A program made the position numbers and the translations under genes. Positions 25,164-52,513 of a DNA stretch of 61,299 bases are shown here, one piece after another. Position 1 is the stretch's first letter. Each line of letters begins with the position of its first letter. A model generated the notes under the pieces. The model worked only from the letters and a program-made list of their open reading frames with translations, ran no database searches and was not told the origin of the DNA. Source of the DNA: Crocinitomicaceae bacterium (GTDB lineage Bacteria; Bacteroidota; Bacteroidia; Flavobacteriales_D; Crocinitomicaceae); assembly GCA_020832365.1 (NCBI GenBank), contig JAFIEX010000001.1:1-61299 (forward strand), written 5' to 3'.

Positions 25164-25186
25164 CTTAGTGTCAAAATGACAATGAT
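25164..25186. promoter_or_regulatory. Candidate operator, site C: CTTAGTGT-CAAAATG-ACAATGAT
   Basis: Read directly. Perfect left arm, partial right arm, with an embedded TGTCA-N3-TGACA. It lies between the divergent -7 boxes at 25146-25153 (-) and 25195-25202 (+). Confidence 0.6.
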
Positions 25187-25194
25187 ATTTTTTT

Positions 25195-25202
25195 TATATT
25201 TG
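25195..25202 (+). promoter_or_regulatory. -7 box TATATTTG of the adhesin operon
   Basis: Perfect TAnnTTTG, 64 nt before ATG 25267. Confidence 0.55.
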
Positions 25203-25266
25203 TTGTCGAAACAGTTGCCTTTTTTGTCTCTTTTAATAGGTAGAAATTGTAATATGTGCCATAATC

Positions 25267-28200
25267 ATGACATTCAGAAAGAAGAACATATTCTTATTTA
25301 TTTCAACATTGCTGGTGTGCAGCTATTTTTTTTCTCAAAACTTACTGCCAAATGGTTCTTTTGAATTGGGTGGCCCAGGCAATGGTTTTGTTGTGGATGG
25401 CGCAGGATATAATCTTGTTTCACCTCCTTTTTCTGGTGCTTCTAATAATGGTGATTTTGCTCATGTAACTAACCCCAATGATTTTAATAGTTCCTTCAAC
25501 ATTGGTGCAGACCATACTACAGGAACTGGATTTATGTTGGTTTATGATGGAAATACGACAGGTGGACAGCAACGGTTTTATAAAGCAGGTAATAATGGTG
25601 GAGGTATCTGCGGATTAACTGTTGGTCAAAGCTATACTTTTAGTTATTGGATTAAAAGTGTTTCCAATGATGTTACTAATAATGCTACTAGGGCTGATGT
25701 TGGTGTGGCATTTAATAATGTTTCAAACTTCCAATTACAATCAGGTATAACATTAGCACCGCTTCCAGCTGATGGTTGGCAGCAGGTTGTTTACTCATTC
25801 ACCCCTAGTTTTAACTGTGTTAATATTGAGCTTTTTAATAACAATACCAATGGGGCGGGTAACAATTTCGCAATTGATGATTTAGCAGTTTTTGCCCCTA
25901 CATCTCCTGTGAGTTTGACTTATTCAAAGGTGTTTGGACAATGTGCTTCTTCTGGAGGCTTTATAGCTGGGTATGCATTTAATGGAGAGGCGCCCTTTAC
26001 ATTTTCCCTTAGTGGGCCAACTAATCAGACGAGTAATACAGGATATTTTTCAGGACTGCCAGATGGCACCTATAATTTAACTGTGCAAGATAACCTGGGC
26101 GACCAAGAAGTTATTTCTAACATTGTTCTTCAAAGTGTTAATACAGGGGCTTTTTTCTTAAATGCGAATTCCACTATTTGCTTGGGAGACACCTTGATTT
26201 TAGAAGCTAGCGGTGGAAATGGGAACTACTCATGGAGCAGTAATCCGAATGACCCAAGCTTTTTATTGATCAATGATTCAATAGCTCAAGTAGCTCCCTC
26301 ACAAAATACAACATACGCTTTAGGAGGTATAGGCGCTAACAGTAATTTGATTTTTAACCCATCTTTTGGATTGGGTAATAGTGGCTTTTATTCAGATTAT
26401 TTTATTTCGTCAAGCAATCCATCAGGAGCACAAGGAGTTGTTGGAGTTGCAAGTGATCCAAGTTTGTTTTTTAATCAATTTGACAACTGTACCGATCAAG
26501 ACGGTAACGATGCGATGCTTGTTGTGGATGGAGCAACATTCAACACGCCAACTGCTATTGTTTGGAAACAAGCTGTTCCGGTTATACCGAATACAACTTA
26601 TTCGTTTTCTTATTGGGCAACCAGTGTTACAAATAATAATCCGGCAGAGCTTCGCAGCTCCATTAATGGTGTAATTCAAAATACCACCACATTATCTAAT
26701 ACAACTTGCAATTGGCAACAAATAACTTTCAATTGGAACTCTGGTAACGATACAATTGCCATTATTGACATCAACAACCTAAACTTTGAGGCTGCGGGCA
26801 ATGATTTTGCACTTGATAATTTTAGTTTTACTGGCGCTACGAACTGCAACTTAACAATTGAAGTGGTAACTCCTCAAAATTTAATTATTGCTGCTTCAAA
26901 TGCTCCAGTTTGCGCGGGTGATTCAATCGTGCTAACAAGTAATGCCCTTGGAACGGCTGATTGGATTTTGCCATCAGGTGCAACACAACAAGCCTCCGAT
27001 ATTACCTTGTCAAATGTCTCCTTGGCTGATCAAGGTCTTTACGAGGTAATTGCCCTGGATTCAAATCAATGTCAAGCACAAGGAACATTTATTTTGGATG
27101 TTTTTCAGGGGCCCACAATTACATTAACTACTGAGGATGTTCAGTGTTTTGGAGGGAGCAATGGTGAAGCAGAGGCCACTGTGGTTGGCGCAAACCCTTT
27201 TTCCTTTTTGTGGTCTGCAGGAGGCACAGCCAATATCACGCAAGGATTGTCAGCTGGCAGCTATACGCTTGAAGTAACTGACGATAATGGTTGTATATCA
27301 AATGCAGCTTTTGAAATAATCGAGCCTGATAGTTTAGTCTTAAATATCATAATAAATGATTCTGACTGTCTAATACCTGATGGATCTGCCGAAGTGATTG
27401 TTAATGGAGGAGTTCCTAATTATGAGTTTGATTGGTCAACAGGAGGAACAGGACAGATAGAAACTAGCTTAGGACAGGGGAGTTATGCGCTAACTGTTAC
27501 CGATGGAAATGGATGTTCGGTGACTGATTCTTTTACCGTTAATGCAGCCAATGCGCCTGATGTGAGCTTAGTGAGTGTTCAAGATGTTTTATGTTTTGGT
27601 GATGCAACGGGTAACGCAGAAATTCAAGTGACTGGTGGGCAAACTCCTTATCTTGTTGAATGGTCAGCATCAGGACAATTTGGTAATTTTTTAGAAAATG
27701 TGCTTGCTGGAAATTATGTGGCTACGATTACAGATGATAATGGCTGTGAAATAAGTTTTTCAGTTGAAATAACACAACCTAACCCTATTAATCCGACAGT
27801 AGAAATTAAAGATTCGGAATGTGGTTTGAATAACGGTCAAATCTCAATTGATTTAGCAGGAGGGACTCCAACTTTTACTTATGAATGGATACCTGCTGTA
27901 AGTAATACGAATATGGCAAACAATTTGTCAGCCGATGATTACCAAGTCGTTATTTTGGATGCCAATGATTGCGAAACGATTATCAATGTTACTGTTGGCT
28001 TGGTGGGGAATATTCCTCTAAGTATTGCGCCTAATAATGTAACGATTGAGGAGGGAGATAATATACAACTCACAGCAGATATTGGTGGAATAACGCATTT
28101 CTCCGTGATTTGGTCACCCGAATCTGGATTGAGTTGCACGGATTGTTTAAATCCGATTGCAAGTCCAACTGAAACCACAACGTATTTAGTCATTATAAAT

Positions 28201-52397: not shown

Positions 52398-52443
52398 TGG
52401 TACTTCTTCTGTTTTGAACAGAAGTGGTAATCAGTGTTCAAAA

Positions 52444-52468
52444 AGCTCCTCCAACGAGGAGTTTTTTT
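52444..52468 (+). terminator. Rho-independent terminator after the secreted amylase gene
   Basis: Stem CTCCTC/GAGGAG, loop CAAC, followed by T7. It is preceded by a second 8-bp hairpin at 52406-52424. Confidence 0.75.
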
Positions 52469-52487
52469 CGTTTAAAAAAAAGTTAAA

Positions 52488-52513
52488 ACACTAAGCGTTT
52501 AATAGACACTAAC
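52488..52513. promoter_or_regulatory. Two direct half-sites, ACACTAAG (52488-52495) and ACACTAAC (52506-52513), upstream of gap
   Basis: Read directly. Their starts are 18 nt apart, and they lie 23-48 nt upstream of the -7-like box at 52536-52543. Confidence 0.45.

Follow-up and report, generated by a model that had tools for sequence, protein, structure and literature searches.

How a bacterium might place the capture of starch at its surface, the breakdown of maltose, and the metabolism of glucose under one control is the question raised by a block of genes in a member of the Crocinitomicaceae (Bacteroidota; GenBank assembly GCA_020832365.1). The block lies between 21.6 and 53.5 kb of contig JAFIEX010000001.1, positions 1 to 61,299 of which (61,299 nucleotides, hereafter the window) were analyzed, and a 23-bp palindrome recurs in five of its intergenic regions: between the genes for a regulator and a sugar kinase, upstream of susC, zwf, and gap, and between two divergent operons for secreted and surface proteins. 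A sequence-only reading of this DNA had put the palindrome forward as the operator of an undescribed regulon under the product of the gene at 42316..43083, here named REG. The proposal is supported by the protein family to which REG belongs, by the precedent of the arabinose regulator AraR, and by conserved sites upstream of REG orthologues; it is highly probable that the five sites are operators of REG, a predicted one-component regulator of the NrtR/AraR family. The word undescribed holds, as far as the literature goes, for the content of the regulon and for its effector, but not for the type of motif, the regulator family, or the mechanism, each of which has been published for AraR, XylR, and NrtR.

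The repeated palindrome is real. When every 23-mer of the window was scored against CTTAGTGT-N7-ACACTAAG, the five best matches (12 to 15 of 16) were those at 42208, 25164, 43091, 52491, and 32738, all of them intergenic and all of them the promoter-region sites recognized earlier. A 27-column matrix was then assembled from 52 distinct sites of other genomes only, none being taken from the window, and its six highest scores in the window fell at 42208 (23.2), 43091 (20.7), 52491 (14.9), 25164 (12.2), 158 (10.4), and 32738 (10.0); each exceeded the largest score of the same rank in 200 first-order Markov simulations (18.7, 15.7, 10.2, 9.0, 7.5, and 6.7, respectively). The match at 158-184 first looked intergenic but lies inside a minus-strand open reading frame (ORF) of at least 361 amino acids that occupies positions 1-1085, continues beyond the window on the left, and is absent from the list of the ORF tool; its cores are degenerate and it is probably a chance match. 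The exact core GTGT-N7-ACAC occurs twice in the window, at 42212 and 43095. With the octamer CTTAGTGT or its complement, the earlier count of four copies, none of them coding, was borne out: exactly four are present (25164 and 32738 on the plus strand; 42223 and 52488 on the minus strand), and all are in non-coding DNA (P of approximately 1e-5 for four of four), which makes up some 6% of the window with the ORF at its left end counted as coding. By itself the octamer count is marginal evidence, with 1.4 copies expected from shuffled sequences and four or more reached in 4 of 100 shuffles. An Rfam scan of the whole window gave no match, so that the sites do not belong to any known RNA element.

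The coordinates given in the sequence-only reading for the sites at 25164, 32738, and 43091 are correct, and that of zwf needed correction to 42208-42230 from 42207-42229; the letters A/B and C/D by which it set stronger sites apart from weaker ones were out of step with the order of its own list. At gap, the second of the two half-sites it named is the right arm of the palindrome at 52491-52513, but the first, the octamer at 52488-52495, is not an arm of an N7 palindrome. Located 18 nt upstream of the operator's right arm, this exact half-site (ACACTAAG) overlaps the left arm by 5 nt and is without a partner arm at the N7 spacing; it may be a remnant, or else an auxiliary half-site that would receive a second dimer.

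The protein encoded at 42316..43083 is of a kind expected to recognize this palindrome. REG combines an N-terminal Nudix-fold domain with a C-terminal winged helix of the NrtR/AraR type, with Pfam matches to NUDIX (1.8e-9; residues 22-161) and, over residues 175-245, to both PF21906 NrtR_WHD (2.8e-23) and PF19368 AraR_C (8e-12). Its best sequence match in the PDB (2.2e-46) is BtAraR (BT0354), the L-arabinose-responsive repressor of the NrtR family from Bacteroides thetaiotaomicron (PDB 5BS6, 5DD4, 5DDG, and 5DEQ; Chang et al., 2015, PMC4666351). The AlphaFold2 model of REG (pLDDT 88) likewise has BtAraR (5dd4/5bs6) as its top structural match (E 3e-22, TM 0.76, 37-38% identity), followed by the NrtR of Shewanella (SoNrtR; E 5e-15, 24% identity). 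In BtAraR, residues K179, R180, N181, K184, K204, and R205 contact the co-crystallized duplex GCAAAAGTGTTACTTTTACACCCATGC and define a GTGT motif; absolute conservation of these residues would be expected of an AraR orthologue, and the three predicted BtAraR sites on two gel-shifted fragments are all GTGT-N7-ACAC (PMC4666351). With GTGT-N7-ACAC as the motif of BtAraR, the palindrome of the window is the kind of site that one would expect this family to recognize; the BtAraR site of BT0365 scores 22.0 on the matrix of foreign sites. More generally, Rodionov et al. (2008, PMC2330246) found the sites of the NrtR family to be palindromes of 21 bp around a GT-N7-AC core. The recognition-helix residues D178, K179, R180, and N181 of BtAraR are identical in REG (D203-N206) and invariant among 24 orthologues.

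Compared to the signature GX5EX7REUXEEXGU, the Nudix box in the translation of REG is degenerate (G56-x5-D62, then R71-V-L-K-E-L-T-G-L in place of REUXEEXGU), with two of its glutamates replaced, as described for AraR, and the Nudix-like domain is predicted to be catalytically dead. REG is a member of the NrtR/AraR family but is neither an AraR orthologue, since both its regulon and its pocket differ, nor an NrtR equivalog; on the NCBIfam model of ADP-ribose-responsive NrtR (NF050029) it attains 123.9 bits against a cut-off of 400. Its homologues are 245-247 amino acids long and align from about residue 9 of the listed protein, and the true start is probably M9 (ATG at 43059) rather than 43083, which would give a divergent spacer of about 77 bp, as in the orthologues.

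An independent test was made in other genomes. With one genome taken per species, 80 loci (1.22 Mb; loci and contigs are cited below by their L numbers) were collected, each encoding a REG orthologue of 49-67% identity; most are from Crocinitomicaceae, Lishizhenia, and other Flavobacteriales, and some from Saprospiraceae, Cytophagales, and Chitinophagales. GTGT-N7-ACAC occurs 95 times in these loci, compared to 1-22 times for other spacers of 3-12 nt and 8 times for the reversed arrangement. Seventy-six of the 95 fall between genes and 61 stand immediately ahead of the regulator gene, usually at the center of a spacer of about 75 bp between it and the divergent kinase gene, with 22-29 nt to either start codon. 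Genes linked to REG in 77 loci include those for the kinase (63), a cytoplasmic GH13 enzyme (48), beta-phosphoglucomutase (beta-PGM; 46), GH65 (45), and a transporter of the MFS family (40). With the foreign-site matrix at a threshold of 10, a site was present at the regulator promoter in 62 of 73 testable loci, at the kinase promoter in 46/54, at zwf in 7/7, at susC in 7/7, at gap in both of the two cases with a complete upstream region, at the gene for a small protein with the C-terminal tail of the type IX secretion system (T9SS) in 4/5, at the SusA-like GH13 gene in 4/6, and at the MFS transporter gene, where first in its transcription unit, in 5/9, as against 15 of 246 promoters of all other genes. 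Footprinting of orthologous promoters, which had been proposed as a check, thus recovered the zwf, susC, and gap sites in other genomes. What these data show is that the sites are real and not random, that the same promoters carry them elsewhere, and that they co-occur with the regulator gene.

The individual promoters add detail to these counts. The closest relatives (86 and 77% identity; L081-L083) were tried for footprinting and set aside; they keep only the divergon of regulator and maltose genes, without the Entner-Doudoroff (ED), susCD, and gap neighbors, and the more distant syntenic loci L001, L005, L010, L018, L023, and L042 were used for those promoters. The zwf-pgl-edd-eda arrangement is also found downstream of REG in L001, L010, and L018, and the gap sites of L010 and L042 are 35-38 nt upstream of the gene; in L001 and L005, where the gap gene is partial, a site is likewise located ahead of it. 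In L051, L065, L071, and L073 a full site stands between a T9SS-tail gene and a SusA-like GH13 gene. Homologues of the SprB-repeat gene in the loci have no site (0/4), and they are probably not orthologues of the gene in the window; the 25164 site consequently rests on the divergons of SusA-like GH13 and T9SS-tail genes. The susC site of the window, CTTAGTGTCTTTTTGACGTTTAA, is almost identical to that of L023, CTTAGTGTCATTTTGACGTTTAC, and the susC and zwf sites of orthologues all have a perfect distal arm and an imperfect proximal one. As this asymmetry is shared, it is conserved and does not reflect decay, and the susC and SprB-gene sites, earlier described as weak, are not decayed copies; the imperfect arm kept in orthologues is the promoter-proximal one.

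Sites at other genes extend the pattern from lineage to lineage. Among the 15 noted above, those identified precede genes for phosphofructokinase (PFK), for a bacterial-type phosphoglucose isomerase (PGI) followed by gap, for a sugar transporter, and for a GH57 protein that shares a divergent site with a TPR protein. A PFK gene is divergent from the regulator gene and shares its operator in L050, L056, L058, L059, L062, L069, L074, and L077; L055, a short contig without a called regulator ORF, also carries a site, in this case ahead of a PFK homologue, and L026 has sites upstream of a bacterial-type PGI-gap operon and of the sugar transporter. The core of the regulon thus appears to be the regulator/maltose divergon, with a predicted extension to genes of either the ED or the Embden-Meyerhof-Parnas (EMP) pathway depending on the lineage. 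No ara gene was seen beside a site, and no NAD gene downstream of one, among the annotated site-bearing promoters of the window and the 80 loci.

Such operators could nevertheless be bound by a different factor, either a paralogous protein of the NrtR/AraR/XylR type encoded elsewhere or an unrelated global regulator. Metagenome contigs were scanned, blind to function, for the exact CTTAGTGT-N7-ACACTAAG, and 128 occurrences were found on 120 contigs; 112 are intergenic, although ORFs cover 86% of that DNA. An NrtR-family gene, encoding a distant homologue (31-53% identity), lies within 300 nt of the site in 12 of the 120 contigs, and gap or GH13 genes are beside it in a few (L113, L127, L194). 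On three contigs (L106, position 3400; L178, position 2515; L097, position 11028) the exact palindrome is directly upstream of genes for nadA (quinolinate synthase) and nicotinate phosphoribosyltransferase (pncB), the one of L097 adjoining the gene of an NrtR homologue of 46% identity; all three are canonical NrtR boxes of the NAD type, identical in sequence. Six others with a GC content near 0.5 (L085, L098, L108, L120, L186, and L196) each carry 2-3 exact palindromes with the recurrent spacers TGAATCA, AGTTTCT, and AGGTCAT, situated between small ORFs of about 126-143 amino acids; these copies have the appearance of a dispersed repeat or multi-operator array with no relation to the starch regulon. 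Having returned mostly NrtR boxes of other lineages together with a hot-spring repeat, the scan was not retained as a test of association with starch genes, being not a clean one. The palindrome is thus a family-wide box, and the regulon is best defined by the site-bearing promoters in genomes that encode this orthologue.

Binding by a different factor is favored by the occurrence of the exact palindrome beside distant NrtR-family and NAD-synthesis genes in unrelated contigs, and the closeness of BtAraR sites to the motif makes cross-recognition within the family conceivable. However, the site is directly upstream of this very orthologue in the 62 loci counted above, which span several orders of Bacteroidota, the regulated genes travel with REG, and Pfam annotation revealed no second regulator gene in the 21.6-53.5 kb block. 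A different factor is on these grounds improbable.

How REG would act on its sites is suggested by their placement. Bacteroidetes promoters have a -7 element of consensus TAnnTTTG and a -33 element, TTTG, and the sites overlap the -33 element or the spacer between -33 and -7 at susC, zwf, and the SprB-repeat and T9SS-tail genes, each of which has a perfect -7 box. Two earlier statements on this geometry proved accurate: the box of zwf (42197-42204, minus strand) lies 3 nt downstream of its site, and the susC site lies over a -33 element, the TTTG within the operator spacer being 20 nt upstream of the -7 box, its expected position. In the direction of the kinase gene a -7-like box is located within the operator itself. 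A scan of the window for sigma-70 promoters (42 matches compared to 50.5 expected) was uninformative. The operators therefore cover contact points of RNA polymerase, which argues for repression, as with BtAraR and NrtR, both of which are repressors released by their ligands (PMC4666351, PMC2330246). A role of REG as an activator or dual regulator at the same sites has in its favor that position does not prove a mode of action and that the promoters of Bacteroidetes have been studied less than those of sigma-70; weighed against the overlap with promoter elements, the -7-like box inside the kinase operator, and the behavior of both characterized relatives, it is a minor possibility, and repression is the likely mode.

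A third reading holds that REG is a classical NrtR that senses NAD status through ADP-ribose and so ties glycolysis to it, and is no sugar sensor. A weak match to the NCBIfam model of ADP-ribose-responsive NrtR would agree with this, as would two residues of the pocket: Arg42 is the equivalent of a residue of Shewanella NrtR that binds the phosphate of ADP-ribose, and Phe36, which fills the phosphate space in BtAraR (PMC4666351), is Pro44 in REG. Against it stand the score of 124 bits compared to the cut-off of 400, the absence of NAD genes from the annotated sites of the window and the 80 loci, and the greater nearness of REG to BtAraR than to SoNrtR in both identity (37-38% vs. 24%) and structural match (E 3e-22 vs. 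5e-15), and it is slightly less probable than either of the alternatives above. That the repeated octamer arose by chance in AT-rich promoter DNA, for which the shuffled sequences reaching four copies might speak, is refuted by an enrichment in 1.22 Mb of independent genomes that is specific to the 7-bp spacer, by the positions conserved at orthologous promoters, and by matrix scores above those of all 200 simulations, and barely merits consideration.

It is thus as operators of REG that the five sites are best explained. A REG dimer would bind each 23-bp site through its winged-helix domains, with each recognition helix reading one GTGT core and the two cores 7 bp apart. Bound over -33 or -7 elements, the dimer would block RNA polymerase; a sugar released from alpha-glucans would then bind to the dead Nudix-like domain, reorient the DNA-binding domains, and cause the DNA to be released. 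The predicted outcome is joint de-repression of the regulator gene and the maltose operon (kinase, GH13, MFS transporter, beta-PGM, and GH65), susCD, the operons for surface and T9SS-secreted amylases, zwf-pgl-edd-eda, and gap. Through the site at 43091..43113, REG would control its own gene as well as the maltose operon.

Several observations weigh against this explanation. Its support is wholly comparative, and the site scan of the source genome covered the 61,299 nucleotides of the window. The sites at 25164 and 32738 have one good arm only, and their scores are not far from the upper end of the null range. Other members of the NrtR family also use the exact palindrome, for example at nadA and pncB, and as the palindrome is common to the family, the motif alone cannot tell which member binds it. 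Within the protein, K184 of BtAraR is replaced by R209 and the wing residues K204/R205, which contact the minor groove, by H229/K230, all of them DNA contacts at positions invariant among the 24 orthologues, with the GTGT core still in use; the hydrophobic lining of the pocket is altered from F36 to P44, G48 to D57, and F49 to L58, Y5 is replaced by H, and a 15-residue insertion (96-110), predicted to form a helix, directly follows R95 beside the pocket.

The same pocket bears on the identity of the effector. The residues of BtAraR that hydrogen-bond arabinose, R34, R86, and H131, are kept in REG as R42, R95, and H156, as are its pocket residues G47, V92, and F129, and the insertion is itself conserved in orthologues, with D101, W104, L105, and R109 invariant. 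Because of the content of the regulon, we infer that the ligand is, in order of likelihood, glucose, maltose, or a hexose phosphate. Loss of the Phe36 equivalent makes a phosphorylated ligand possible; without the blocking Phe of AraR, the pocket might have been reopened to phosphorylated or nucleotide-linked glucose, such as glucose 6-phosphate, beta-glucose 1-phosphate, or ADP-glucose. We would give even odds to the broader proposal that this clade is the first hexose- or hexose-phosphate-responsive branch of the Nudix-type regulators, a single master repressor that joins starch SusC/SusD, T9SS-secreted amylases, and the main glucose-splitting route (ED and gap here, the EMP genes pfk/pgi elsewhere) in Bacteroidota loci without a SusR-type gene nearby, its pocket remodeled by the clade-specific 15-residue helix.

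The operators, promoter boxes, and genes of the block are collected in Table 1. A stem-loop, CTCCTC-caac-GAGGAG, at 52446-52461 is followed by a run of seven T residues (to 52468) between the last GH13 gene and gap, and convergent terminator-like hairpins are located between susD and eda (37489-37511 on the plus strand, 37591-37618 on the minus strand); these structures support the proposed boundaries of the transcription units. The pgl ORF as listed shares 65 nt (40663-40727) with the 3' end of zwf, and its true start codon is probably further downstream than listed. Just outside the carbohydrate block, at 17607-18428 on the minus strand, is a gene of the MbnP family (Pfam PF20243, 9e-50).

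Table 1. Putative REG operators, -7 boxes, and genes of the alpha-glucan block. Distances of boxes are from the start of the site, with the range including orthologues in brackets.
Feature	Position	Strand	Sequence	Remarks
Operator, divergent T9SS-tail gene/GH13 operon (-) and SprB-CBM/GH13/GH31 operon (+)	25164..25186		CTTAGTGT-CAAAATG-ACAATGAT	
Operator upstream of susC-susD	32738..32760		CTTAGTGT-CTTTTTG-ACGTTTAA	Matrix score above null
Operator upstream of zwf-pgl-edd-eda	42208..42230		CTTTGTGT-CAATAAA-ACACTAAG	Exact core
Operator, REG/kinase divergent spacer	43091..43113		CAAAGTGT-AATTGTG-ACACCAAG	Exact GTGT-N7-ACAC
Operator upstream of gap	52491..52513		CTAAGCGT-TTAATAG-ACACTAAC	35 nt from gap ATG
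T9SS-tail gene -7 box	25146-25153	-		Perfect; 33 nt
SprB-gene -7 box	25195-25202	+		Perfect; 31 nt
susC -7 box	32773-32780	+	TATATTTG	Perfect; 35 nt (33-36)
zwf -7 box	42197-42204	-	TATATTTG	Perfect; 26 nt (26-27)
Small T9SS-tail protein and T9SS-secreted GH13/CBM48 enzyme	21612..25122	-		Pfam; 13 nt between genes (ORF list)
SprB-repeat/CBM cell-surface protein, SusA-like GH13 (cyclomaltodextrinase type), GH31 alpha-glucosidase	25267..32712	+		Pfam
susC/susD-like outer-membrane uptake pair	32819..37420	+		Pfam
ED operon zwf-pgl-edd-eda	37641..42180	-		Pfam
Regulator (REG), 255 aa as listed	42316..43083	-		Pfam, PDB match, AlphaFold2 model
Maltose/maltodextrin operon: BadF-type sugar kinase, cytoplasmic GH13, MFS transporter, beta-PGM, GH65 maltose phosphorylase, T9SS-secreted GH13	43137..52397	+		Pfam
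gap (glyceraldehyde-3-phosphate dehydrogenase), separate transcription unit	52549..53541	+		Pfam

Among known systems, that of BtAraR is the nearest. REG shares with it the two-domain architecture, the fold, the degenerate Nudix box, and the D-K-R-N residues of the recognition helix; the operators of both are GTGT-N7-ACAC within a semi-palindrome of 21-23 bp, and in both the regulator gene is clustered with its targets, which comprise SusC/SusD-type systems as well as cytoplasmic catabolic genes. REG differs from BtAraR, to which it is 37-38% identical, in that its sites are at genes for alpha-glucans, maltose, and glucose and none is at araMPRDAB or arabinan genes; in the lining of the pocket, the helix of residues 96-110, and the wing, with H/K in place of K204/R205; and in a predicted regulon that takes in the glycolytic genes zwf-edd-eda and gap, or pfk or pgi in other lineages. 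BtXylR (BT0791) and other pentose-linked regulators of the NrtR family in Bacteroidetes likewise serve sugar pathways, form divergons with their targets, and are predictions of comparative genomics (PMC2330246; Ravcheev et al., 2013, PMC3878776), but they are associated with xylose and arabinose genes, and the published lists contain no hexose, starch, ED, or EMP regulon (PMC2330246, PMC3878776). NrtR proper, the ADP-ribose-responsive repressor of NAD genes represented by that of Shewanella oneidensis (PDB 3GZ5, 3GZ6), has the same fold and 21-bp palindromes with the GT-N7-AC core, but it is 24% identical to REG, REG falls below the cut-off of its NCBIfam equivalog model, and no NAD gene is at the annotated sites here.

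With starch, a comparison with SusR also suggests itself. SusR is a maltose-sensing activator that spans the inner membrane and belongs to an unrelated family. Through it, the starch SusC/SusD system of Bacteroides is, like the one proposed here, under the control of a starch breakdown product (PMC7641319), but no SusR is encoded in the 21.6-53.5 kb block, and the control proposed would be exerted by a cytoplasmic repressor whose targets extend into central metabolism. A literature search, of incomplete coverage and with regulon databases (RegPrecise) outside it, found no starch, maltose, glucose, ED, or EMP regulon described for the NrtR/AraR family.

The regulation of polysaccharide utilization loci (PULs) in Flavobacteriia and related environmental Bacteroidota is poorly known, and in 2020 that of marine Bacteroidetes was still called unknown (PMC7641319). 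The alpha-glucan and glycolysis regulon proposed here would represent a new sugar specificity of a known regulator family, whose type of motif and mechanism were already known; no new mechanism is revealed. It offers a testable regulon composed of one small, predicted cytoplasmic repressor, a 23-bp box, and targets kept across many uncultured freshwater and marine lineages, and the matrix of foreign sites can be used to annotate these genomes. The regulon would span the path from the capture of starch at the cell surface down to the ED or EMP pathway, and it would take the sugars served by the NrtR family beyond pentoses to alpha-glucans and glucose.

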